UHGV virus genome: UHGV-0198624
Origin: a virus
Direction: 5' to 3' (one strand)
DNA: 57,341 nucleotides
The notes beneath the pieces were generated by a model. It had not been told where the DNA came from. It made no database searches and saw only the letters and a program-made list of their open reading frames with translations. Below, piece after piece: positions 3,798 through 57,030 of this stretch. The first letter of the stretch is position 1; each line of letters begins with the position of its first letter. Made by a program: the position numbers and the translations under genes.

Positions 3798-4253
3798 TTA
3801 CAGCCATGAAATTCTAACATCAAAAAAATTGTCATAAGACACCCATTCAACATTAAAGCCATTTGAACGGAAATGCTTTGCAATTTCATTTCTTTCAACA
3901 TCCTTTAATTTTTTTTTATTAAAATCTTTCAAACAGACATTCGCATAACTTTCTCCATTTTCTGCACTTTTTTTTATAGAACTGTTAATCAGTTCAATTG
4001 CCATGCCTACACTTTCATAGTCAATTGCTTTTTTTTGCAACATTCTTGCTTCGTCTGCTGTCATTGTTCCTTTGAACTTCCGTCCGCTCTCAATTTTCTT
4101 GACCAGCTCATCCATTCCGTTAAAAGCCAGTGAACAGCCCATGCAGTCAGCCATGTATGCGAATGCTACAATCTGCCCTTTCTCAAAGGCTTCCGGCTTG
4201 TCGAAAATTTCGCCTTTTATCTCCTCGTATTCTGAAAGTTTCATTAAAATCAT
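3798..4253 (-). CDS. Hypothetical protein
   Basis: Coupled ORF in the leftward operon. Confidence 0.65.
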   Translation of the reverse strand: MILMKLSEYEEIKGEIFDKPEAFEKGQIVAFAYMADCMGCSLAFNGMDELVKKIESGRKFKGTMTADEARMLQKKAIDYESVGMAIELINSSIKKSAENGESYANVCLKDFNKKKLKDVERNEIAKHFRSNGFNVEWVSYDNFFDVRISWL

Positions 4254-4759
4254 TCATTAACCTCCCATTTGTCAAAATTCCTGCACTTTAAAGTTACAAG
4301 AAGTTTGCAAAAATTATCTTCATAGTCAAACATTGCATACTTGCAGTTTTTACAGCATTTCAAACACTCGCACTTTTTTGCAAGCTCTTCCGTGGCTTCG
4401 TCAGCCTTGATATGGAACACATCATCAAACAGCTTCTTAAAGCCGTCAACGTTTTTCTTGCTCTTGTCGTACAGTCCCCTAATCATTCTTACATCAGCCT
4501 TCTTAGTCTCAAGCTCTTTTTCAGCTTTTGAAAGTCTGCGCTTCAAGTCGGAGATAATTTCAACGGCTTCTTTCTCTGAAAGGCGGAACGCCTCGTTTTC
4601 TATTTCAAGCCGCCTCTTGCCAGATGCAAGCCTTCCTATTCTTCCGCTCTGGCTCTTCATTCCGGCAAGAAAAGCCATTTCCATCTGAATGTACTCATCG
4701 CTCGGAGTGTTTTCATTTGTAAAGTTGTGCTCGTCTATAAAATTCCACCATGCCTTCAT
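4250..4759 (-). CDS. Coiled-coil protein with C-terminal CCxNC Cys cluster
   Basis: Heptad-rich sequence; KCCKNCKY...C...C. Confidence 0.7.
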   Translation of the reverse strand: MKAWWNFIDEHNFTNENTPSDEYIQMEMAFLAGMKSQSGRIGRLASGKRRLEIENEAFRLSEKEAVEIISDLKRRLSKAEKELETKKADVRMIRGLYDKSKKNVDGFKKLFDDVFHIKADEATEELAKKCECLKCCKNCKYAMFDYEDNFCKLLVTLKCRNFDKWEVNE

Positions 4760-5070
4760 GGCTTAATCCTCCATAGATTCTTGTCCTTGCATTCGCCGCA
4801 AAGCCTGCAACCTTTGACTTTTTGCAAAGGACTTTCATTGAATCTAAGCTTGCCGTCCATAGGGGCGCAAGTGGCATATTCAACGAAATTGGCGCAGTTT
4901 TCACAGCACTTCATCTTTTCAACTTGCTGCTCCAACTCTTCAATTCTCTCTTTTGCACTTCGGCAAATACTGCTTACAACAATGTGGAATGTTGAATAAT
5001 TTCTGTTTTCATTTTCTTTGGCACATTGAAGCAATGCGTTTTTAATTTCACGTCTTTCTTTGTCTGTCAT
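4756..5070 (-). CDS. Hypothetical protein with KCCENC Cys cluster
   Basis: Cys motif resembles that of the neighbouring ORF. Confidence 0.65.
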   Translation of the reverse strand: MTDKERREIKNALLQCAKENENRNYSTFHIVVSSICRSAKERIEELEQQVEKMKCCENCANFVEYATCAPMDGKLRFNESPLQKVKGCRLCGECKDKNLWRIKP

Positions 5071-5683
5071 CTTTTACCTCGCTATTTAAGAATTGCTCTG
5101 CTTTTTCACAAAGTTCGTTCCACAAGTCTGTGTATTCTTGTGGGTGGATCGGGTCAAACTCAATCTCATTATTTACAAACTCCGAAAACTTTTTAATTAT
5201 TTCTTTTGCTTTGGTGAGCTGCTCATCTCCTTTACACCAATTATTTAACACGCTATTTGCTTCGCCTTTCAGTTCTGTGTTTTCCTTACAGATAATCTCA
5301 AATCCTTGTTGTAGTACTGGGTCTTTAAGTACCATGCTGATTCTGTTTTTAAGTTCATCTTTAATCTCCTTTGGAGGCGTAATTTCTTTCCAAGCATAAA
5401 CCTTTAGTTCTTCTGCTTTATTATTTGACCACCATCTAATTTTATTATCTCCACCAATTATTGTATGTCCAATGCTATAGAATTTAACATTAGCTGCTTT
5501 ACAATAACACAATACGTTTTCACATTCTTTAGGATATTCACCTTTTGACGAGTAATGCCATTCATTAGCCTTGTTGTAGCCAAACTCTGCACCGTCTCGA
5601 AATGAATGTAAACAAGCACCATAAGAAGTATGAAACTCTTTTTCACAATCTTTTGCATAATTTTCTGCTTCTTTCTCAAACAT
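5048..5683 (-). CDS. Mosaic phage protein with a DUF551-like segment
   Basis: EWH.....P...ENVL...V.AW pattern. Confidence 0.65.
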   Translation of the reverse strand: MFEKEAENYAKDCEKEFHTSYGACLHSFRDGAEFGYNKANEWHYSSKGEYPKECENVLCYCKAANVKFYSIGHTIIGGDNKIRWWSNNKAEELKVYAWKEITPPKEIKDELKNRISMVLKDPVLQQGFEIICKENTELKGEANSVLNNWCKGDEQLTKAKEIIKKFSEFVNNEIEFDPIHPQEYTDLWNELCEKAEQFLNSEVKDDRQRKT

Positions 5684-5803
5684 ACTTCCTCACTTGTTCT
5701 CTATCATGAATCAATATACACCCACTCACTGTCGGACTTATCCCAACTGTTCATTGGGTTGCGCCTGCCATGTTAAAAACCTCAGTATTCTCAAATTTCA
5801 TAA

Positions 5804-13840: not shown

Positions 13841-14758
13841 TTACCCCTTGTTTCTTCCAGCCTTATGCGAACTCACAAGTATTTTTTGGGCGTGCTGCCT
13901 GTAAAGACTGTTGAACTCAATATCATTATAAATCGTGTCGTACACCTGCTCGTAAGTGTATTTATTCAACTTTGCGTGAATTTCTGGAATCGTAAAATCA
14001 GCCTCTATGTAAGTTCTGATTTTTTCTTTTTCATCATCAGAAAAAATGACAATATCAAGCTCTTCTTTATTCTTCCAGTAAGCCTTTTCACCGTTCGCAT
14101 TGACTTTCTTTTTCCAGTTCTCGTAAGTCTTTAACAGTTTCGGGTCTGTTATAAGCCCCCAATCGATAAGACGGTGAGAGATTGTATTCCTGTAGATTCC
14201 AAGATTCTGCTCCATACGCCTAAGCGGAACGCCAAGCTTGTACTGCATTATAATTTCATCTTTTTTGTCATTTCCAACTGTAGCGTCATCGGAGCTCTTT
14301 CTTCCTTTTGGTCTGCCAAGCAGGACACCTTTTTTTACACGAAGCATTAAGCCTTCCTTCGTCCTTGCCTGTATCATCTTTCTTTCGATTTCCGCAGAAA
14401 GCCCGAACGCAAACGCAAGCACTTTCGACTGAATGTCATCGCCGAGCTTGTAGTTGTCTTTAACTGTATAAACAACCGCCCCGACTTTCATACAATGGTT
14501 TAGAATATCCATAACCATAAGCAAATCACGTCCAAGACGGCTGATTTCCGCCGCTATCAGAATGTCGTCCTTATGCAGCAGGTCCAGCAAGACTCCCAAA
14601 TTGCGCTTGCAAGGGTCTTTCGAGCCGCTCACACCGTCATCTGTTATGTACTTGTCAATCTGCCATCCCTGTTTTTCCGCAAAGCCGTCAACGCCCTGTT
14701 TCTGCGAGTTGTAGTCCTGCTTGTCAGTCGAAACCCTCAAATATCCGTAAACCGCCAT
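13841..14758 (-). CDS. Serine recombinase, Mpi-like, with C-terminal extension
   Basis: YGYLRVSTDKQ, SRLGR, LGDDIQSKVLAFAFGLSAEIER, GRP. Confidence 0.92.
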   Translation of the reverse strand: MAVYGYLRVSTDKQDYNSQKQGVDGFAEKQGWQIDKYITDDGVSGSKDPCKRNLGVLLDLLHKDDILIAAEISRLGRDLLMVMDILNHCMKVGAVVYTVKDNYKLGDDIQSKVLAFAFGLSAEIERKMIQARTKEGLMLRVKKGVLLGRPKGRKSSDDATVGNDKKDEIIMQYKLGVPLRRMEQNLGIYRNTISHRLIDWGLITDPKLLKTYENWKKKVNANGEKAYWKNKEELDIVIFSDDEKEKIRTYIEADFTIPEIHAKLNKYTYEQVYDTIYNDIEFNSLYRQHAQKILVSSHKAGRNKG

Positions 14759-15002: not shown

Positions 15003-15686
15003 TCATAGTCGCTCATAATTTCCCTCCCGGATTCTTCTGTTGTGCTCAATCATATTTGCCCTTGCAAGGGAGTTTTTTCTGTCGCGGAACCGCCCTGTTT
15101 TAAGCCACCTGTAAAGAGTTGTCCTGTCAACTCCAAGCCGCCGGGCTATCTCGCTTTTTCGGACACCAGCTGCAAGCATCGCATCAATCTGACTTTCGTA
15201 CTTAGACAGCTTTGTATAAGAGTTGCAGTCGCCAAACGGTCGCCCTACAATAATTCCCTGTTGCCGTTTCTTCTCAAGGGCTTCCTTCGTTCGCCTGCTT
15301 ATCATCTCCCTTTCAATTTCAGCAGACAGCCCGAACGCAAAGGCAAGCACCTTGCTTGTGATGTTGTCGCCAAGCTCGTAGTTGTCTTTGACTGTATAAA
15401 CTTTTATGCCGTTGTTCATACAGTATTCCAAAATGCGCATAATCATAAACAGAGAGCGTCCAAGCCGACTGATTTCCCCGGCAAGCAGGATGTCTCCGGA
15501 GCTTAGTTTTTTCAGAAGATTTCCCAGCTCCCTTTTTTCCGGCTCGAGAGTTCCACTCTTGCCTTCGTCGTCTATGTATTCATCAATGACAAAGCCTCTT
15601 TTTTTAGCGAATTCATCAATGCCTTGTCTTTGGTTTTCTCCGTCCTGCTTTCCAGTGGAAACCCGGAGATAAGCATAAACCGCCAT
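15003..15686 (-). CDS. Serine recombinase, Mpi-like, with C-terminal HTH
   Basis: YAYLRVSTGKQ, SRLGR, SKVLAFAFGLSAEIER, KSEIARRLGVDRTTLYRW. Confidence 0.93.
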   Translation of the reverse strand: MAVYAYLRVSTGKQDGENQRQGIDEFAKKRGFVIDEYIDDEGKSGTLEPEKRELGNLLKKLSSGDILLAGEISRLGRSLFMIMRILEYCMNNGIKVYTVKDNYELGDNITSKVLAFAFGLSAEIEREMISRRTKEALEKKRQQGIIVGRPFGDCNSYTKLSKYESQIDAMLAAGVRKSEIARRLGVDRTTLYRWLKTGRFRDRKNSLARANMIEHNRRIREGNYERL

Positions 15687-21234: not shown

Positions 21235-21254
21235 TAATTCAGATGTACGAATTA
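21235..21254. promoter_or_regulatory. 20-bp palindromic site, copy 1 (TAATTCAGATGTACGAATTA)
   Basis: Matches copies at 45831 and 55156. Confidence 0.65.
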
Positions 21255-29931: not shown

Positions 29932-30531
29932 TTATATCAAAGAAATTTTTTTCATATATTTGTCCAGTGTAACCCACGTAACGCCTAGATTCCTCGCAAT
30001 CTCCGACTTGCTTTTTCCCTCAAGCCTTGCCCTGCGGATAATTCCGCCTTTTCCTGTCAGTTTGTAGCGGCTAGGCTTCCGTCCTTTAGGTCTGCCGAGT
30101 TTCTTTCCCTCTTTCAAAGCCCTTGCAAGTCCCGCTTTTGTCCTCTCACTGATTAAGTTGCGCTCGATTTCCGCAGAAAGCCCGAATGCGAACGCAAGCA
30201 CCTTTGACTGGATATTGTCGCCAAGCTCGTAGCCCTCCTTGATTGCCCGCACCTGAACGCCATTTTCAAGGAACGACTGCAGGACATTCAGAATCATCAT
30301 CAGCGAGCGTCCGAGACGCGAGATTTCCGCTATCACGATAATGTCGCCTTCTTTCGCCGCCTCTATAAGGTTGCCCAGCTTCCGCTTCTCTGGTCTTTTC
30401 GTTCCGCTCACGGTCTCCTGAACAAAGACGATGTTCCGCAGCCTGTGGAATTTGCAGTACAGCCTTATCTCCAGTTTCTGATTTTCAAGCGTCTGTTTGC
30501 CAGTGCTCACGCGGATATAGCCATAAACCAT
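29932..30531 (-). CDS. DNA invertase (Mpi-like serine recombinase) of the tail-fibre switch
   Basis: YGYIRVSTGKQ, SRLGR, C-terminal HTH; about 70 bp from the left IR. Confidence 0.93.
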   Translation of the reverse strand: MVYGYIRVSTGKQTLENQKLEIRLYCKFHRLRNIVFVQETVSGTKRPEKRKLGNLIEAAKEGDIIVIAEISRLGRSLMMILNVLQSFLENGVQVRAIKEGYELGDNIQSKVLAFAFGLSAEIERNLISERTKAGLARALKEGKKLGRPKGRKPSRYKLTGKGGIIRRARLEGKSKSEIARNLGVTWVTLDKYMKKISLI

Positions 30532-45799: not shown

Positions 45800-45850
45800 A
45801 GTATAAAACATCCCGGATTTTTTTTCAACATAATTCGTATATCTGAATTA
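45800..45850 (-). promoter_or_regulatory. Head-gene promoter TTGAAA-17-TATACT with 20-bp palindrome copy 2 just upstream of -35
   Basis: TAATTCGTATATCTGAATTA at 45831-45850. Confidence 0.75.
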
Positions 45851-46069
45851 TATTTTTTTCTGCATAAAGCATTCTATTCCCTTGCCTAGAAAATAATCAT
45901 AGGCTTTTTTGCATTCATCGGCATCATCGCTTTGGAAAAGGCGCACGCAGAAGCCTCCGTTCTGCTCCGACTGTACCAATGCCGGGCTTCTCGCCTTGTC
46001 TTTAAGCCTCAGAAATTCCTTTTCAGCCTCTGCTCTTGTGTTTTTCAAAGCCGTCAGAATCCTAGCCAA
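45848..46069 (-). CDS. Small SPOR-like protein
   Basis: GF.VRL.......EC......F..KGIECF pattern. Confidence 0.5.
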   Translation of the reverse strand: MARILTALKNTRAEAEKEFLRLKDKARSPALVQSEQNGGFCVRLFQSDDADECKKAYDYFLGKGIECFMQKKI

Positions 46070-47273
46070 AAAGTTCCCCTTGCAGATTCATTCTCCGCTT
46101 TGTTTCAGCTATGAATTTTTCCTGCGTCCTAGGCACCCACAAGCCCTCTTTTTTGACCTGTCTATTGTCAGTTGCACTCAGTGTGGCTCTTTTTTCTATA
46201 AAGTCTATTCTTTCAAACCTTTCCGCCGGCATCGCATATTCGCTTATAATTACAGGCTCGCTTTGCATTTCCGCCCAGTCATAGAAACTTTCATAGTCGA
46301 ATCCGCTGTCTGAATATTCCGTCGTATTTTTATATGGAATATCGCAATAAATCAAAGAATCCGGCTGAATCCTGACATTCCTGTAGTCGCCCCGGAATTT
46401 TTCCAGCCTTTCCAGCCTTTCCAGACTTTGCAGACTTTGCAGACTTTGCAGCCTTTGCAGACTTTGCAGACTTTGCAGCCTTTGCAGACTTTGCAGACTT
46501 TCATATAAAGATTGAAGACCATAAATTTCATCGTAGTTTTCTGGAAGATACAAAAGCGACTGCAATTTTATATACACTTCTCGTGTCGGAAACTCCCACT
46601 GGCTTCTTTCGAAGTAATGTCCTGCCATTCCGTTAGTGCCAAGATAGCGGTCAACTTCCGCCCTTGTCTTTCCGGCTTTTCTCAACCCCTCCAGCAGATA
46701 GGCGCGGAGCTTCTCTGAATTGTCCTTGATTTTTGTCTCAAGGTTACCGCGCAGGCTTTCATACTCCGCCGGACTTTTCAAAACATTTTTTAAATACCAT
46801 CTGATATATTTTTCCTTGTATTCCGCGGCGTTCTTTTTTATGTCAATCCTTGTGCCGTCTGTCCTTATGCCGAATTCTTCCATAAGGGAAAAGTCGCCGT
46901 AAACGCGCGCATAGTGCAGGGCTTTTTTCCACGGCTCTATTTCTTTGGAATAAAGATAGTTTACTCCTTTGTTTCCGAAACTCCAGCAGATGCGCACATA
47001 CTCGTCATTGTCTTTTAGCGCAAAAAAATCCTTGCGGCTTATCCAGCGTCTTTCATCGGCATATTTTCCACTGATTGTGTCCGTGAAAAGCTCCGTCATC
47101 TTCGAGATGTCATTTATTGTGAATGTCTCAAACTTGTTTTTCAGCATTGCGCAGTGGGTTACCGCGCAGCCTCCGGCAAACAAATCGTAAAAATGTTTTT
47201 TTTCAGGAAAATGTCCGACCACCCATTCGGCTATCTTGTTCTTGCTTCCCATATAGGGCAATCCGTAGTTCAA
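46062..47273 (-). CDS. Dam-like (alpha-class) adenine methyltransferase with inserted HTH-like domain and tripeptide repeat
   Basis: PYMGSK, DLFAGG, YCDIPY, ISEY; TTG start overlaps the upstream stop. Confidence 0.88.
   Translation of the reverse strand: MNYGLPYMGSKNKIAEWVVGHFPEKKHFYDLFAGGCAVTHCAMLKNKFETFTINDISKMTELFTDTISGKYADERRWISRKDFFALKDNDEYVRICWSFGNKGVNYLYSKEIEPWKKALHYARVYGDFSLMEEFGIRTDGTRIDIKKNAAEYKEKYIRWYLKNVLKSPAEYESLRGNLETKIKDNSEKLRAYLLEGLRKAGKTRAEVDRYLGTNGMAGHYFERSQWEFPTREVYIKLQSLLYLPENYDEIYGLQSLYESLQSLQRLQSLQSLQRLQSLQSLQSLERLERLEKFRGDYRNVRIQPDSLIYCDIPYKNTTEYSDSGFDYESFYDWAEMQSEPVIISEYAMPAERFERIDFIEKRATLSATDNRQVKKEGLWVPRTQEKFIAETKRRMNLQGELFG
46399..46502. repeat. 9-bp coding tandem repeat (LQS/LQR/LER, about 11 units)
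   Basis: Unit TT(G/C)CAG(A/C)CT. Confidence 0.92.
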
Positions 47274-48346
47274 TTTCCGCCCTCCGTCATCTTTCTCCAC
47301 TCCAAATAGGTCATGTCCGCCGGGACGCTGTAAATCTTTCCATCCCTGCTGTAAGCCACCCGGCTTGCGCCTCCTGGCATTGCGTCTATTTCGTCCGGCT
47401 CGAAGTATGGAGCTGTTGTGCAGGCGCATCTCGGATGTATCGGCGGATAGTTTACACCCTCTTCCTTGTATTTCAGCTCGAAAACCTGACCGTCAAGAGC
47501 TCCGCATTCAGGACATACGCGCCCATCAAGCCCGGAAATGAACTTGTATTTCTCTATGCCGTGTTCCCTATAGCTGTCTGCGGTCGCTGATTCCGTTATA
47601 TGCGCGGCTTCTGTCAGTGCAAGCCTCTCGCAGTTCCTGTAGTTCATACTGAACTTTGAGGACATAGCCAAGGCTATTTTCTTAGGATTATGACCAAGCG
47701 ATATTCCGGTAAGAAGCTCACGGTCTATCGAATCAACTAGTTTTCCCTTATCCGCCCATATTCTGTCTGAGTAGTTTCCGCCAAGCCACTGCTCATTCAG
47801 TGCCCTGTCAACTGTCTTTCCGTCCGGAGCGGAATACCCGGCGGAGACGCCTCTTGCCTTGTCAATCCCGAAAGATGCAAACAGACGGCTTTCTTTGTAC
47901 ACTTCTTTCAAGGCATCCTCGAATCCGCTTTTCTGGTCCGCCGCCATGCGGACTATTATATGCTCTATCCTTGTCTTGGCTTCCTCAAGCCGGCTCATAT
48001 AGGCTCTTGCGGAAAGAATACGGAGTTTTTCTCTGTATTTTCTTGACATGGACAGACCTATTTTTTCGGGGCTTGCGAACTTGTAATATTTCTCGATGTC
48101 CTTTATCGCGCTTTTCAGCTGCGATGAGTTCAGCCGCCTGTTAGCCTCCGCAAGTGTAAGTCCGTTTTCCTCGGCATAGCGTCCGTAAAAAAGCTGTATT
48201 TCCCTGTTTATGTCTTCAAGGGTGTTGCGGTAGAGTGTCCGCATTTTCATCAAAAGCTTGTCTGTCTGCTTTCCTCGCTCTTGCTCTGTAAGGGAATTTC
48301 GCCTTTTCCAGTACTCCTCGCTGGACTTGTTGTATTTTATAGCCAT
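47270..48346 (-). CDS. Minor head protein (SPP1 gp7/Mu F-like)
   Basis: YW..R; W.G.NYSDRIW; RL..TE; C..LDG; PPIHPRC.CTT.P. Confidence 0.9.
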   Translation of the reverse strand: MAIKYNKSSEEYWKRRNSLTEQERGKQTDKLLMKMRTLYRNTLEDINREIQLFYGRYAEENGLTLAEANRRLNSSQLKSAIKDIEKYYKFASPEKIGLSMSRKYREKLRILSARAYMSRLEEAKTRIEHIIVRMAADQKSGFEDALKEVYKESRLFASFGIDKARGVSAGYSAPDGKTVDRALNEQWLGGNYSDRIWADKGKLVDSIDRELLTGISLGHNPKKIALAMSSKFSMNYRNCERLALTEAAHITESATADSYREHGIEKYKFISGLDGRVCPECGALDGQVFELKYKEEGVNYPPIHPRCACTTAPYFEPDEIDAMPGGASRVAYSRDGKIYSVPADMTYLEWRKMTEGGN

Positions 48347-51121: not shown

Positions 51122-52426
51122 TCAAACTTGAATCCCGAATTTCTGCAAATCCTCGCAGCCGTAGCGCAATGCGTCTGGAGCGTGGGAAAAATCATGCTCC
51201 GGCTCATTCAGAACTTTGCCCGACAACCTGTCTTTTTTCCATGCGTAGTTGCTTAAAGCCTCTATCATCTTCGGACACTTCGGATGAACTATTATCTGAT
51301 AGTCCTGCAATTTTTGTATTCCGCCGGCAACACTTCCGCTTCCCTTTCTTGCCCCGATGATGCCGCGAAGACCTAGAAGCCTAAGCTCGTTTATAGTCCT
51401 TGGGTCTTCCGAGTCAGCTCTTATCACGGCTTCCCCAAATCCGTCAGTTATGAGCCGCGCCGCTATCTTGCGGTTCTCCATCATGGTTTCATAAAATTCA
51501 TAGTAGACGTAAATCTTATAGTCTTTTCTGTCAGCATAAGCTCCGTAGAACGCCGTTGGATCATTATATCCGAAGTCCATTCCGTTGCACGGAACAAGAG
51601 CAGGAAGCCCTCTTGCGGTCTTTTTACCGGCGGCATTCTCTATGACTTTCTCAATATCAAACTCCAATTCTATCCAGTTCTCATAGATAAGCCCCTCGGC
51701 TATTCCCCATTCACCATCGCCCTCTATTCTATAGCGTCTCGGATTCTGGACTTTCATTTTCTCATAAAGCGCCTTATCCGATTCTGAGAGAAACTCATTG
51801 CATCTGTATGTTGTTGTGAGCGCAAGCGTGTCGGGATCACCGCTGTCAAAGAACCGTCTTTTCAGCCAGTGGCGGTCGCTCCATGGATTGAATGTCAGGA
51901 CTATCTGATGAAAAAGCCCCGGCGGAAGCTGTCCACGGATTGACATATCAACCTTGTTGAAGTCATCCTCGCTGTTTATTTGGAAAGCCTCTTCAAACCA
52001 TACCCAGCATAAATTACCCTTTGACACGGTTATAGATGTCAGTGAATGCGGGTCATCCATTCCGCGGAAAAGAATCTGCTGTCCTGTCGGAATATATGTA
52101 AGCGTAAGTTCGCCTTTCGGTATCTTCCAGTCCGCCCTTGCGCCGAGCCTCTCTATAGCCCAGATAAGCTGCGCCCTTGTCGAGTCGCGGTGCGTGTTGT
52201 AGTACCGCCGGATTACCAGCAGATTTGGATAAAGCCCCGAATCCCCATACTTCATCATCAGGTAAATAAAGCGCAATGCCGTAGTGCATGACTTCTTGCT
52301 TCCTCGGCTTCCCTTGACTGCTATATACCGCTTGGTGCTCCGCCAAAAGTCGACATATCCGTTTCCGACAACTTTTTTCAGGCTGATGCTCTGCGTCTCG
52401 CTACGGCTGGCTATTTCCCGCCTCAT
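51122..52426 (-). CDS. terL: Terminase large subunit (PBSX family)
   Basis: KGSRGSKKS, WFEEA, TFNP, G.DFG.NDP, H..DA.RY. Confidence 0.95.
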   Translation of the reverse strand: MRREIASRSETQSISLKKVVGNGYVDFWRSTKRYIAVKGSRGSKKSCTTALRFIYLMMKYGDSGLYPNLLVIRRYYNTHRDSTRAQLIWAIERLGARADWKIPKGELTLTYIPTGQQILFRGMDDPHSLTSITVSKGNLCWVWFEEAFQINSEDDFNKVDMSIRGQLPPGLFHQIVLTFNPWSDRHWLKRRFFDSGDPDTLALTTTYRCNEFLSESDKALYEKMKVQNPRRYRIEGDGEWGIAEGLIYENWIELEFDIEKVIENAAGKKTARGLPALVPCNGMDFGYNDPTAFYGAYADRKDYKIYVYYEFYETMMENRKIAARLITDGFGEAVIRADSEDPRTINELRLLGLRGIIGARKGSGSVAGGIQKLQDYQIIVHPKCPKMIEALSNYAWKKDRLSGKVLNEPEHDFSHAPDALRYGCEDLQKFGIQV

Positions 52427-52817
52427 TGTCCGTTTTCCCTAGGTCGTCAATATAGACGCGTGTAACAGACTTCTGCTCCGCCTCAACCTTGACAGTCGGA
52501 TTGTAGCCTTCATCGACCCCTAATCGCTCCATAACCCACATCGACACCTTCACGCGCCTGTCCTTGTCCCTGTCAGTCTCATCTTCCCTGCGCTGGAGAG
52601 CCTCAAGAATAGTGTTCTTGGCAAGCTCAACCTGCGTAACGCGCAGTATCGACTTCTCATGCTCAATGAGCTTTTTCAGCTCCGGGTACTGCTCTAATTT
52701 CCGGGCTACAGTCCGGACATTACACCCGGCTTTCCTTGCAATTGCGTTTATCTCTCCGTAGCTTCCTGAGATTGCGTTTTTCAGCAGCTTCTTTGTTACT
52801 GATTCCCTGCGAGGCAT
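52401..52817 (-). CDS. terS: Terminase small subunit
   Basis: N-terminal HTH (IARKAGCNVRTVARKL); overlaps terL; V.IDDL tail. Confidence 0.75.
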   Translation of the reverse strand: MPRRESVTKKLLKNAISGSYGEINAIARKAGCNVRTVARKLEQYPELKKLIEHEKSILRVTQVELAKNTILEALQRREDETDRDKDRRVKVSMWVMERLGVDEGYNPTVKVEAEQKSVTRVYIDDLGKTDNEAGNSQP

Positions 52818-52958
52818 TGCTTTTACCTTCTTATTTTTATGGCTTTATACGACAAAAGTTGTATATATATACATTCTTACATAGAAAAATGAAAAAAAAT
52901 ACTTCTTTTTAATAAAAAAAACGAAAAAAAATAACTAAAAACGGATTAAAGTCCGCAT

Positions 52959-53735
52959 TTATGACAGCTCGCGGAGCTTTATTTTGTGGTCGTAAATGTC
53001 ATACAGCTTGCTAGCCTTGATGAATTTCTCCGTCTCCCTTTCGTGCATAAGCCTCATAAGAAGGCGTTTCTCCTCGTTTGACACGCAAACAACTGTGAAT
53101 ACATAGTCATCCTTGTCCATTCTGTATATCTGCCCATGCTCATCATTCGCCGTCGCCGTGTTTTCCCTTTCCTTTGACCTCTTTCTCTGGAAGTCCTCCG
53201 CGCTGAATTTTCTTGCCTGCTCCTGCAATTGCAGAGCCTCGGCGGAATCGCCCATTTCAGCGGAAAGAACATCGCTCCCGCCCATGTCCGGTATATCGCC
53301 GAACAGCACTGGAATATCCGACTCGTCAAAGCCGAAATCATCTGTGATTGAGATATCCGGATACATATCCTTCAATTCCGAAAGAAGCTCGAAGTCGAAA
53401 TCCCCCATGGCGCTTCTGTTGTTCATGAAGACGTTAGCCTCAACTTCCGTCTTGTCATCCAAATCCGCAAGCGCAACAGTAAGCTCATAATCCCCTTTTT
53501 CAGGATACTTATTCAGCTGGTCAAGGACAGTCAGTCTCTGATGTCCGGAGACAACCGTCATGGTGTTCTTGTTGACCGTTATCGGCGCTAACTGCCCGCG
53601 CCCTTCCGTCTTGAACCATTTCTTAATCTTCTTCAAGGCGTTTTCTGTTATAGTCCGCGGGTTGTAGTCCGCCCCGTGTATGGAGCTTCTTTTTACAACC
53701 CTGCACTCGAAATTCTCGTATTTGTTCGCACCCAC
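52959..53735 (-). CDS. ParB/Srx N-terminal domain protein
   Basis: ADYNPR.I; VN..T..VVSGHQRL; E.N..MN. Confidence 0.88.
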   Translation of the reverse strand: MGANKYENFECRVVKRSSIHGADYNPRTITENALKKIKKWFKTEGRGQLAPITVNKNTMTVVSGHQRLTVLDQLNKYPEKGDYELTVALADLDDKTEVEANVFMNNRSAMGDFDFELLSELKDMYPDISITDDFGFDESDIPVLFGDIPDMGGSDVLSAEMGDSAEALQLQEQARKFSAEDFQRKRSKERENTATANDEHGQIYRMDKDDYVFTVVCVSNEEKRLLMRLMHERETEKFIKASKLYDIYDHKIKLRELS

Positions 53736-53737
53736 TG

Positions 53738-54376
53738 CTATCTCCTGTACATTTCTATTCTTTTCACTTTGGCTTCCAGAGCTGGAAATGTTTCTATAAT
53801 TTTTTTATAGTCGGAGGGGTACTGATTCTTTATGTAAAGAAGCCCGTAATCATCAGGAACGCTCAGGTCGTGCTGAAAACCGTTCCTGTACTCCTCGCCG
53901 ATAACCAAGTTATGAATCTTTACATAGGACGCCACCTGCTTTGACGTGAATTCTATTATCGGATAAAAAAACTTATTCCTCTCGTCAACAGAATCTATGC
54001 CCGACAAAATTCCGCGCCTTGTAAGTGATTCGCACCGTCTCGTTCCAAGGGCAATCCAGCTTGCATTGAACTCATGTCTCGAATCATTTATGCAGTCGCT
54101 CTGAACAATCTTTCTGCCAAGCATATATGACAAGGTAGACCAGCTCGGACGCCGCTCAATTTTTATTCCGTATTTTTTTTCATAAAAACATAGAATTCTT
54201 TCTTTGTACTCAAGATTAGGCACAAAATAGTAATAGACAAAAGTCATGTTGCCCTTGTAGTTCTTCATCATAAGGTCAAGCATGACAGCTGAATCCCTGC
54301 CTGTGGAAAAAGCCACAATGCAGGGATAGTCAAGGGCGGAAATATTTTTTATAGAGTAAAAAATATTTCTAATCAT
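53738..54376 (-). CDS. PAPS-reductase-like PP-loop adenylation enzyme
   Basis: FSTGRDS PP-loop; G.RR.ESLTRR; YPI. Confidence 0.85.
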   Translation of the reverse strand: MIRNIFYSIKNISALDYPCIVAFSTGRDSAVMLDLMMKNYKGNMTFVYYYFVPNLEYKERILCFYEKKYGIKIERRPSWSTLSYMLGRKIVQSDCINDSRHEFNASWIALGTRRCESLTRRGILSGIDSVDERNKFFYPIIEFTSKQVASYVKIHNLVIGEEYRNGFQHDLSVPDDYGLLYIKNQYPSDYKKIIETFPALEAKVKRIEMYRR

Positions 54377-54531
54377 CAGCCGGCGCTTGAACCAGAACCA
54401 CCTGCGCGCACACTGGACGTGTATTCCAGAGTGTCGTAGTAGTCTCTTTGATTTGATTGATAGCCACCGACAGGGCGACCAGACACAAACGTGTTCAGTC
54501 TTGATTTTGAGCTCATTTTTGGTCTTGCCAT
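54376..54531 (-). CDS. 51-aa peptide ending GGSGSSAG (not in ORF track)
   Basis: MARPKMSSKSRLNTFVSGRPVGGYQSNQRDYYDTLEYTSSVRAGGSGSSAG; AGAGG RBS; TGATG coupling to the enzyme. Confidence 0.75.
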   Translation of the reverse strand: MARPKMSSKSRLNTFVSGRPVGGYQSNQRDYYDTLEYTSSVRAGGSGSSAG

Positions 54532-54549
54532 TTTTTTACCTCTCTAAAT

Positions 54550-55119
54550 CTAATCATCCGGCAAGTCGACATGGGAAATATCGAATAGCCTCAACGCTCC
54601 TTTCACATTTACGGCCGGCGAATCGTAAAGAACCGGATTGTCAAGAATCCAGTGATAGCATCCGCTTTTAGCCCAACCGGAATCAAAATCCTGGATAATA
54701 TCAACTAAATCCACGTGTCCGATGATTGCGAAATTGACAAGCGCAAATTTCTTTGAATCCCTGCTTTGCTCTAAATTTTCTCCATACGCGCGGCGATATA
54801 AATCGTAAAGCCTTCCCATTGCCTTGTCAAAGCAAAGGCAGTCATCAAGCCTTGTATCTCCAAGCCTTTCCGCCTCCTGCTCAAACATCGCCTCTGTCGG
54901 ATTGTCTCCAAGGCGCTCAAGCAAGGCGCGCGTATCCTCAAGCAGTCCATCAGGAAGGAAATCCTTATTGACAAAATTCATATTTATTCCGCCGCCTGAA
55001 TGTATGTACAAACGGCCTCTGTAATCTGTTTTCCAAGTTCGGTTTTCAACCCTCTTGGCTCCGGTGCAGATCAGATAAGAGTATGGATTTTTCACCGACA
55101 AAGCTATTTTTTTCATCAT
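54550..55119 (-). CDS. ASCH domain protein
   Basis: LSVKNPY..LI..GAKRVENRTW.T.YRG.L.IH; AIIG.V.L.D; KG.L.LF. Confidence 0.9.
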   Translation of the reverse strand: MMKKIALSVKNPYSYLICTGAKRVENRTWKTDYRGRLYIHSGGGINMNFVNKDFLPDGLLEDTRALLERLGDNPTEAMFEQEAERLGDTRLDDCLCFDKAMGRLYDLYRRAYGENLEQSRDSKKFALVNFAIIGHVDLVDIIQDFDSGWAKSGCYHWILDNPVLYDSPAVNVKGALRLFDISHVDLPDD

Positions 55120-55123
55120 CTTT

Positions 55124-55175
55124 ATTTTATCCTATTCTTTAAAAAATATCAACAATAATTCGTATGTACGAATTA
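55124..55175 (-). promoter_or_regulatory. Promoter TTGATA-17-TAAAAT with 20-bp palindrome copy 3 just upstream of -35
   Basis: TAATTCGTATGTACGAATTA at 55156-55175. Confidence 0.75.
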
Positions 55176-55209
55176 AAAAAGGCTTCTGAAAAACCAGAAG
55201 CCTTTTTTT
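55175..55209. terminator. Bidirectional terminator, copy A
   Basis: A6-GGCTTCTG-loop-CAGAAGCC-T7. Confidence 0.85.
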
Positions 55210-55449: not shown

Positions 55450-55514
55450 AATATACACTTTTTTTTATATTATGTCAATGTATTGTTGACAGAATTAAAT
55501 AAATATTTTATATT
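55450..55514. promoter_or_regulatory. Back-to-back sigma70 promoters, both TTGACA-17-TATATT
   Basis: TGTCAA at 55473-55478 and TTGACA at 55486-55491. Confidence 0.8.
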
Positions 55515-55532: not shown

Positions 55533-56363
55533 ATGACAGTTTATGAAATCGTAACAGATAAAATCATCAAGCAGATGGAAAAAGGAATTATTCCATGGCA
55601 CAAGCCGTGGCATGGCGGTATAGCAAAATTCAACCGCGTAAGCAAAAAAGGCTATTCTGTTTTGAACCAGCTTCTTTTGCCTTTTGACGGCGAATATGCA
55701 ACGCTCAAACAGTGGAACGAGCTTGGCGGCAAGGTTAAGGCCGGAGAAAAAGGAAACATTGTTACTTACTGGAATTTTATTAACAAAACTGAAAAGCAGG
55801 AAGACGGAACTGAAAAAGTAAAATCTTTTCCAATTCTTCGCTATTACACTGTTTTTCATATTTCACAGGTTGAAGGTGTTAAACCTCTTGAAAACGTTAA
55901 TTTTGCCAACATGGAAGTTGAAAGTGCAGAAGACGTAAAGAACACTTATTTTAAGCGCGAAAGCTGCCGCCTTTTCGTGGAGAAATCAGACCGCGCATAC
56001 TACAGTCCTTCTTTTGACGAAGTTCATGTGCCGGAATTGAACCAGTTTGAAAACAGCGATGAATTTTATTCAACACTGTTTCACGAAATGACACATTCAA
56101 CAGGTGCTTCAATCAGACTTGACCGACTTTCAAACACTGCTTTCTTTGGCAGTGAAGATTATAGCAAGGAAGAACTTGTTGCAGAAATCGGAAGCGCAAT
56201 GCTTTCAAGTGTTGCCGGGCTGAACACAGAAAAAACTTTCAACAATTCCGTCGCTTATTTACAGAGCTGGCTTAAAGCTCTTAAAAACGATCCGCGCATG
56301 ATTGTAAGTGCGGCAAGCAAGGCCGAAAAAGCTGTTGATTATATCCTGTATGGAACAAAATAA
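55533..56363 (+). CDS. ardC: ArdC-family antirestriction protein (DUF1738 plus zincin-like domain)
   Basis: PW.KPW; T.KQW..LGG.V..GEKG; Y.VF...Q; HEMTHSTG; EELVAE; YLQSWL..L. Confidence 0.92.
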   Translation: MTVYEIVTDKIIKQMEKGIIPWHKPWHGGIAKFNRVSKKGYSVLNQLLLPFDGEYATLKQWNELGGKVKAGEKGNIVTYWNFINKTEKQEDGTEKVKSFPILRYYTVFHISQVEGVKPLENVNFANMEVESAEDVKNTYFKRESCRLFVEKSDRAYYSPSFDEVHVPELNQFENSDEFYSTLFHEMTHSTGASIRLDRLSNTAFFGSEDYSKEELVAEIGSAMLSSVAGLNTEKTFNNSVAYLQSWLKALKNDPRMIVSAASKAEKAVDYILYGTK

Positions 56364-56398: not shown

Positions 56399-56531
56399 AT
56401 GCAACTAAATCAAAAGTGCTACCAACGATATGCACAAGGCTTGGAAAAATGGAAAAAATTGACAGACAAGGAAAAACACGACCTTGTTATTTTTCCTGCC
56501 AATGATTTCAGGTTTGAAAAAATAAACATTC

Positions 56532-56590
56532 TGTCAATAATATATTGACAAAATGTAAAAAAAAAGTGTACATTTAATCATTAGGAGGAA
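56532..56590 (+). promoter_or_regulatory. Promoter/RBS block, inverted homologue of 55429-55495
   Basis: TGTCAA-N7-TTGACA-18-TACATT...AGGAGG. Confidence 0.75.
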
Positions 56591-56766: not shown

Positions 56767-56773
56767 CTAAAAT

Positions 56774-56808
56774 AAAAAAGGCTTCTGAAAAAAACAGAAG
56801 CCTTTTTT
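56774..56808. terminator. Bidirectional terminator, copy B
   Basis: Same stem as copy A. Confidence 0.85.
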
Positions 56809-56811
56809 ATT

Positions 56812-57030
56812 TTAAATTGGCTCTCCAGTCTGCTTGTCGATGAAGCGGATTTCAAGGGAAGCCCCGAAAGCCTCCGCTATCTTCTCAAGCTCCACGCTTG
56901 AAAATCTGTTCGCCTTGAGCTTATTGCAAAGCCCCTGCGGTGTCATTCCGATTCGTTCCGCCAATTTTCGCATAGAGACACTGCCTTTTTTTACAGCGCA
57001 AATTTTTATATATTCTGTCAAATTTATCAT
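56812..57030 (-). CDS. Small XRE HTH regulator (Aca-like position)
   Basis: SMRKLAERIGMTPQGL.NKL....F...ELEKIAEA. Confidence 0.85.
   Translation of the reverse strand: MINLTEYIKICAVKKGSVSMRKLAERIGMTPQGLCNKLKANRFSSVELEKIAEAFGASLEIRFIDKQTGEPI

Follow-up and report, generated by a model that had tools for sequence, protein, structure and literature searches.

Organization of the Locus

The window analysed is the whole 57,341-nucleotide (nt) stretch of the virus genome UHGV-0198624, a temperate myovirus genome encoding an integrase, an SPP1-type portal, a scaffold, a major capsid protein, and a tail sheath. Its minus strand carries, in this order, genes for an ASCH-like protein, a 51-amino-acid (aa) peptide, a 212-aa PP-loop enzyme, and a 258-aa ParB-like protein, followed by a 138-aa gene, terL, and the portal gene; the first four precede the terminase as a preliminary description, made from the sequence alone, had claimed. 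Comparison across loci indicates that this module is real and widespread and that the tail of the window peptide is less fixed than that description supposed.

The peptide gene (54376-54531, minus strand) encodes a basic, low-complexity chain (7 K/R vs 3 D/E, net charge +4) with a Gly/Ser tail ending in GSSAG. Its ribosome site reads GAGG, and it overlaps the start of the enzyme gene through TGATG. Among 20,000 sequences simulated with matching dinucleotide composition, 12 had an open reading frame (ORF) with a ribosome site filling this gap. Searches with the peptide gave no Pfam or PHROG match and only a chance leader-peptide match in NCBIfam, with no ubiquitin-like family in any of the three. 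A protein search returned only its own record; such peptides are not findable by sequence. The window contained no further tailed peptide that has a ribosome site.

Family Sample and Coding Status of the Peptide

In total, 261 loci were taken from viral, metagenome, genome, and phage collections. They constitute a biased sample, to which three scans each contributed the best 80 of 273-371 confirmed matches. The enzymes were grouped into 93 clusters at 85% identity, which are not independent in the statistics, and fell into clade A (25 clusters including the window, support 99), clade B (13 clusters, support 100), and clade C (the remaining 55).

Peptides were called using a filter for basic, low-complexity ORFs that is blind to the last residue, and the calls were set by hand for clades A and B and for 13 clade C clusters. 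The calls placed a small basic ORF next to the enzyme in 86 of the 93 clusters, the clusters without a call being L112 and L062 (both with too little upstream sequence), L083, L088, L149, L154, and L156; the doubtful calls in L010 (whose start codon is one base out of frame), L104, L167, and L260 were counted. All 86 peptides are net basic, a property partly imposed by the calling rule, and several loci carry two or three copies. In the 12 clusters with variants, 82 synonymous and 25 non-synonymous single-base codon differences were found (about 522 and 1602 sites, respectively), giving a per-site non-synonymous to synonymous ratio of about 0.1. As a family, the small ORFs of the module are thus protein-coding and under purifying selection, which bears out the earlier view of the peptide as a real gene conserved in position. 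Module peptides lacking annotation in GenBank were observed in the phages Pm86 (L005, two copies at 4125-4229 and 4242-4340), RAP44 (L004, 2842-2976), and BigBern1 (L007, 2219-2320).

The PP-Loop Enzyme

The enzyme gene (53738-54376, minus strand) encodes the motif STGRDS, and its product matched PF01507 (E 1.9e-8), in agreement with the PAPS-reductase-like SxGxDS protein first described. The score was far below the cut-offs of the CysH, CysD, TilS, and DndC models (22 vs 165 for cysH; 14.1 bits vs 290 for the DndC model TIGR03183), and no match to PF06508 (QueC) was found at E 0.1. A search of 1.84 billion representatives yielded 857 clusters of relatives (50% identity, E ≤ 0.001). The enzyme alignment comprised 134 sequences, namely, the window enzyme, 8 close homologues, and 125 of the best 150 relatives, with fragments and long forms excluded. 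The PP-loop residues S24, G26, and D28 and the Arg-loop residues G111 and R120 were retained in at least 131 of the 134. Neither ECGxH, the C-terminal catalytic cysteine motif of CysH, nor CC together with CxxC, the Fe-S ligand pair of the DndC type, occurred in any of them.

Fold comparison was carried out with an AlphaFold model (predicted local distance difference test score, pLDDT, 97). The best folds, tied at Z 14.9-15.9, were those of APS reductase, FAD synthase, and CysD (for 4bwv, Z 15.9, root-mean-square deviation (rmsd) 3.5, 173 residues aligned), followed by TilS-like proteins (13.3), QueC (11.2), and Cap9 (9.6). The order of Foldseek E-values placed TtuA and TilS first at rmsd 12-15, with the reductase-like group at about 4. 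For a PDB match named PptA (E 0.024), the literature offered no relevant paper. Non-redox relatives of this fold adenylate an oxyanion, which is sulfate in CysD and the FMN phosphate in FAD synthase. Because the motifs for adenosine triphosphate (ATP) are also intact and the reductase cysteines are missing, the enzyme is predicted to be an adenylyltransferase and not a reductase.

A true PAPS reductase, acting as an auxiliary metabolic gene with incidental neighbours, would agree with the PF01507 match and with the routine reporting of phage "PAPS reductases" as host sulfur-metabolism genes, for example, in the accessible text of PMC12323421 and PMC11318856. We give this explanation next to no credence in view of the 134 sequences lacking ECGxH, the low cysH score, and the constant association with the peptide and a partner domain. 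Since the family lacks the catalytic cysteine and travels with these two elements, the "PAPS reductase" or sulfur-metabolism label is very likely wrong for it.

The enzyme clades differ in the segment R75-H101, and at the clade level its length goes with the type of peptide tail. It measures 37 aa in 48 of the 55 clade C clusters (with an RxG motif in 46 of the 55), 44-48 aa in all 13 of clade B, and 27-28 aa in 13 of the 25 of clade A, including the window (clade range 19-40). Judging from the fold, this loop may cover the acceptor pocket.

The ParB-Like Partner and Neighbouring Genes

The 258-aa protein (52959-53735, minus strand) is composed of an N-terminal ParB/Srx domain, an acidic linker, and a C-terminal domain of about 75 aa. 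It had no Pfam match and was assigned through PHROG 9353 (E 3e-47), the ParB-like PHROG 620 (E 4e-19), and a Foldseek match of its model to Caulobacter ParB (E 3.8e-5), the fold resembling that of ParB that binds cytidine triphosphate. The ParB/Srx domain keeps invariant NPR, GHQ, and NN, and GHQR at 64-67 (the GxxR nucleotide motif) is invariant or nearly so in 66 sequences. This domain was detected in 76 of the 93 loci overall and in none of the 13 clade B loci. With a profile built on the final 75 residues of the ParB-like proteins, the C-terminal domain was found in 89 of the 93 loci, and three of the four loci missing it end less than 700 nt from the enzyme. In clade B, its gene directly follows the enzyme in 13/13 loci (E 5e-4 to 9e-11 among 3,674 ORFs). 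The domain matched no known family, and an Atlas search gave only unnamed viral clusters (best 0.91). Because the C-terminal domain occurs in nearly all loci, including those of clade B without ParB/Srx, the core of the module consists of the enzyme, this domain, and the peptide, with ParB/Srx and ASCH as frequent extras. The minimal system is thereby narrowed to three parts. The ParB/Srx partner initially proposed is present in the window, but the constant partner is the C-terminal domain.

The serine kinases SbnI and SerK share the ParB/Srx fold (weak Foldseek rows, E 0.17-1.1), and the peptide could accordingly be viewed as a protamine-like DNA condenser, whose tail would be reversibly marked with adenosine monophosphate (AMP) or phosphate by the enzyme and ParB/Srx to time compaction, with no transfer to DNA. 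The net basic charge of the peptides, so far as it is not imposed by their calling, and the multiple copies in several loci would suit such a role. It is quite unlikely, as the ParB/Srx domain is missing from every clade B locus and the net charge of the window peptide is no higher than +4; virion proteomics was not found.

The gene 54550-55119 (minus strand) encodes a 189-aa ASCH (PUA-like) protein, a predicted nucleic-acid reader and accessory member, with a match to PHROG 3193 (E 2e-28) and one to Pfam ASCH (E 9e-4) just under the cut-off. The ASCH family was present in 64 of the 93 loci by BLAST clustering and in 41 by a stricter hidden Markov model. A large terminase was found in the fetched flank of at least 48 of the 93 loci. 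In the window, the large terminase gene (51122-52426, minus strand; PF04466, E 5e-51) is overlapped at its start by the 138-aa gene (52401-52817, minus strand). The name terS given to the latter is not borne out by family searches, which returned zero terminase matches at E 0.1, and it is a probable small terminase by position only.

Among ORFs of at least 100 aa, 31 families were seen in at least three loci. Terminases, a methylase, a peptidase, and ArdC are among the 30 besides the enzyme; no desulfurase, rhodanese, E1/ThiF, E2, or JAB was detected among these 30 families, and host enzymes could serve. In locus L018, a radical SAM protein with a Gly/Ser/Cys-rich tail (4809-5759) follows the module ParB, and the local peptide is without a small-residue tail.

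Peptide Tails and the Terminal Glycine

Counted from the stop codon, the clade C tails follow the pattern GGxGG, with G at −1 (the final residue) and at −2 in 45 of 51 peptides each, G at −5 in 44, and a GG end in 41. The clade B peptides, which sit downstream of the enzyme, have RSSx[ST] tails (R at −5 in 10/11; S/T last in 9/11) and no final Gly (0/11). In clade A, the peptide is encoded immediately upstream of the enzyme, with ASCH ahead of it in 20 of 24, and the tails are more relaxed: a final Gly was found in 10/24, G at −5 in 12/24, and a GG end in 3/24. With clusters that are not independent, the clade A Gly frequencies exceed a 14% background (p 8e-4), and the final Gly is far less frequent than in clade C (Fisher p 5e-5). 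At least seven changes of the terminal Gly are required on the clade A tree. The tails of the five closest clusters are GSSAG (window), GSTSG, GGTSG, GNANS, and GSATP; the window tail keeps the clade C frame (G at −5 and at −1), with Ala-Gly as its last two residues. Ser or Thr occurs within the last 8 residues in 70 of the 86 peptides. The RDYYD core noted in the preliminary description is not conserved, being private to the window, and DYY, RDY, or YYD was found in 2/86 peptides, the window's among them. In the clade A loci L025, L026, L027, L037, L038, L039, L040, L041, and L044, the Gly/Ser run is often found after an acidic residue near the N-terminus or in mid-chain (FDxSGG, CEGG, PEGG) and not at the C-terminus.

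Variability of the terminal Gly, named beforehand as grounds for refuting the initial proposal, was thus found in clade B and in the clade of the window, with conservation in clade C. Because this residue varies, a strictly Gly-dependent reading, whether ubiquitin-like, ThiS-like, or sulfur-carrying, is unsupported for the window. As for the proposal that the peptide is the substrate of the enzyme, the peptide is a real module member and its end is constrained in two clades, but the Gly-dependent and sulfur-carrier forms of the proposal are not supported. Activation of a free C-terminus that does not require Gly would be compatible with a variable last residue.

A ThiS/TtuB-like sulfur carrier for DNA or RNA thiolation is very improbable. 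TtuA, TilS, and MnmA are among the enzyme fold matches, and the window tail does end in Gly. The peptide, however, is of low complexity and without a ubiquitin-like family match, the Fe-S motif is missing from the 134 enzymes, the sulfur-handling and conjugation enzymes listed above are missing from the recurrent neighbour families (subject to the same size limit and to possible replacement by host enzymes), and the window has Met in place of a Cys that 98% of clade C enzymes retain.

Tail chemistry may alternatively have decayed in the clade of the window, or moved to the internal or N-terminal Gly/Ser patch, so that the final Gly of the window would be a leftover. The seven or more terminal-Gly changes among the 24 clade A peptides and the shortened enzyme loop point in this direction. 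Such decay or relocation nevertheless appears improbable, given that a clade A peptide ending in Phe is still under purifying selection (8 synonymous vs 3 non-synonymous differences) and that the peptide persists in 24/24 clade A loci with upstream sequence.

Regulatory Elements and Genome Setting

Ahead of the ASCH gene, a perfect 20-bp palindrome with 9-bp arms (55156-55175, no strand assigned) abuts a sigma-70-like −35/−10 pair (55152-55124; 10/12 consensus positions). Copies with 2 mismatches were located at 45832-45849, 21 nt ahead of the capsid scaffold gene, and at 21236-21253, 31 nt ahead of a RecT-like gene, giving 3 matches including the palindrome itself vs 0.27 expected. Since the two copies precede the scaffold and RecT genes, the palindrome is probably a real regulator site, and the arrangement suggests one phage or host regulator for the module, scaffold, and RecT units. 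The palindrome was rejected as a feature of the module family: it is absent from 257 of the 261 loci, and the 4 matches represent one near-identical contig. A 141-nt gap separates the ParB stop from the 138-aa gene and holds, 3′ of that stop, a weak terminator-like hairpin with a T tract (52941-52956, minus strand); terminator hits in this region were at chance level (5 vs 4.8 expected). Of the single operator-marked promoter proposed for the whole unit, the palindrome and promoter are present, but one transcript running through terS is unproven in view of the hairpin and the gap.

Sigma-70-like promoters were found before ASCH in 6 of 21 ASCH-led loci and before other genes in 3/92, 0/72, and 0/11. 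Together with the window's own promoter and the ArdC-like anti-restriction gene that adjoins the module in the window and in 3 of the 93 loci, this would fit an early anti-defence unit, in which either the tailed peptide would act as a decoy for host machinery that conjugates proteins with a Gly end, or nucleotide signals would be altered or drained by the enzyme and ParB. There is only a slim chance that the module works in this way, considering its constant position ahead of the terminase and the fact that the tail type tracks the enzyme clade.

The ArdC-like protein of the window contains a zincin domain and is transcribed away from the module (55533-56363, plus strand); an ArdC relative also lies upstream of the module in locus L010. 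The small genes around ArdC are framed by an inverted pair of a 37-nt TTGACA-bearing promoter element (55459-55495 and 56528-56564) and by two occurrences of an identical terminator hairpin (55175-55208 and 56768-56814). Elsewhere in the genome, a DNA methyltransferase gene (46062-47429, minus strand) is situated between the minor head and scaffold genes, and three serine invertase/resolvase genes were located at 13841-14758, 15003-15686, and 29932-30531, one of which adjoins the tail-fibre region.

Restriction-type words are strongly avoided genome-wide (GGCC 54 vs 374 expected, GATC 84 vs 321, AAGCTT 20 vs 90), and GTCAC/GTGAC is absent from the whole window (0 vs 44 expected). No regional depletion of GGA/TCC or GGG/CCC was detected within the window. 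Among named carriers of the enzyme, an uncultured Spirochaetaceae metagenome-assembled genome is nearest (70% identity), so a spirochaete is the likely host of the window phage; one sample of 401 genomes from the phylum of this carrier gave 4 matches.

Proposed Mechanism

The stop-anchored conservation of the tails in clades B and C implies that the peptide end is read by something, for which the enzyme is the natural candidate. We propose, at somewhat less than an even chance, that the enzyme adenylates the peptide C-terminus and then passes the peptide to phage DNA or to a DNA-bound partner around packaging. By analogy with the oxyanion adenylation of its fold relatives, the enzyme would split ATP to form an acyl-adenylate, the oxyanion involved being the C-terminal carboxylate of the peptide. 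The basic peptide body would hold the peptide on DNA, and the ParB/C-terminal-domain protein would hold the enzyme there. Because the C-terminal carboxylate is an oxyanion regardless of which residue comes last, the relaxed clade with its shorter loop would fit the same chemistry, this loop presumably tolerating a wide range of final residues. Further in favour are the frequent peptide calls and their codon differences, the retained PP-loop and Arg loop, the tied best folds, the clade-specific loop lengths, the terminase in the flank of many loci, and the palindrome copy ahead of the capsid scaffold gene. Weakest of the steps is the final acceptor, be it phage DNA or a DNA-bound partner.

Several observations weigh against this C-terminal activation. 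In the clade of the window, 14 of 24 peptides end in a residue other than Gly, including bulky or charged ones (F, Y, R, K, H, P); in several, the Gly/Ser patch is near the N-terminus and the last residue is F, Y, R, or K. In the close pair L012/L109, the N-terminal half is common to both peptides, yet one ends in G and the other in H. The near-identical copies of the window peptide show only two differences (Q25R and A2V), both non-synonymous and outside the tail, so that the selection seen in the family is not evident for this copy. The correspondence of loop and tail rests on three clades, which amount to two changes on the tree. A late timing is uncertain, because the palindrome also precedes RecT and promoters stand before ASCH in some of the loci. 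A dense protective mark on DNA is also hard to reconcile with the strong avoidance of restriction-type words.

Alternatively, the enzyme could adenylate the DNA backbone or a base directly, in the manner of DndC/SspD/TdpC, with the peptide serving as a non-covalent DNA-binding helper or regulator, or attacking the adenylated DNA through Ser/Thr or an amine. This would account for the variable last residue in clade A and would give a use to the Ser/Thr of the tails. A Pfam domain is common to the enzyme and DndC/SspD (PMC12914056, available text), and the accessible part of PMC4738411 predicts DNA modification in packaging for ParB-terminase loci and modified-base binding for ASCH. It is unlikely in our estimation, as it leaves the stop-anchored GG of clade C unexplained, the DndC model score is far too low, and the word avoidance speaks against it too.

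Extended to the whole family, C-terminal activation would mean that phages across several phyla covalently ligate a peptide to their own DNA through an ATP-activated C-terminus during packaging, with three clades reading GGxGG, RSSx[ST], and relaxed tails and the 75-aa domain acting as a constant adaptor. We put this forward as an unlikely extension. If true, peptide-DNA ligation would represent ubiquitin-free conjugation of a peptide to DNA by a reductase-fold enzyme, a new kind of viral genome modification.

Comparison with Known Systems

No functional study of the module was found in the open literature, subscription papers and supplements lying outside the coverage. The pair IbrA/IbrB (YbdN/YbdM) likewise combines a PAPS-reductase-like and a ParB-like gene; IbrA is longer, has an extra domain, and is not known to have a peptide partner. 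The sulfur carriers ThiS, MoaD, and TtuB and the ubiquitin-like carriers resemble clade C in their Gly-Gly end. They differ in that the module peptide has no beta-grasp family match, its last residue varies in clades A and B, and the enzyme has a PP-loop reductase-like fold, with no E1/ThiF type in the recurrent neighbours of at least 100 aa.

Cap9-CdnD of type IV CBASS (cyclic-oligonucleotide-based antiphage signalling system) and QatC-QatB each combine a PP-loop enzyme with a protein that is targeted at its flexible, Gly-bearing tail, according to the accessible text of PMC13279940. Those are QueC-family defence enzymes that, in the same text, modify an N-terminal Gly, whereas the constrained end in the module is usually the C-terminus; the structural scores of the window enzyme also separate it from Cap9 (Z 9.6) and QueC (Z 11.2) in favour of the reductase-like group (15-16).

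DndC and SspD are among the nearest tested chemistries (PMC12914056 and PMC10853773, as far as their text is available). The former source, in its accessible part, describes DndC, SspD, BrxP, and TdpC as having a PAPS-reductase domain whose pyrophosphatase chemistry acts on DNA and notes that a host desulfurase can substitute in phosphorothioate systems. Unlike DndC/SspD, the 212-aa window enzyme is without the Fe-S cysteine motif and scores far below the DndC cut-off. The 30 recurrent neighbour families of the module include no desulfurase or, terminase aside, dedicated NTPase, though a host desulfurase could serve.

Close counterparts are the pairs annotated as "PAPS reductase family protein" and "ParB-like nuclease" ahead of the terminase in RAP44 (Riemerella), LR1 and JNU_P7 (Lactobacillus), Pm86 (Pasteurella), Cafasso (Gordonia), and BigBern1 (Bifidobacterium), so that the module is carried by cultured phages such as LR1, Cafasso, and BigBern1, whose hosts are harmless. 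They share with the window the enzyme family (21-32% identity), the partner domain, and a usually adjacent terminase. They differ in that the small basic ORF lacks annotation in RAP44, Pm86, and BigBern1 and in that the clade of the window is separate and combines a short enzyme loop with relaxed tails. ParB-terminase (ParB-Tls) loci are predicted, in the accessible text of PMC4738411 and PMC8256090, to modify DNA during packaging, and the window resembles them in having a ParB-like gene and a candidate modifying enzyme ahead of the terminase.

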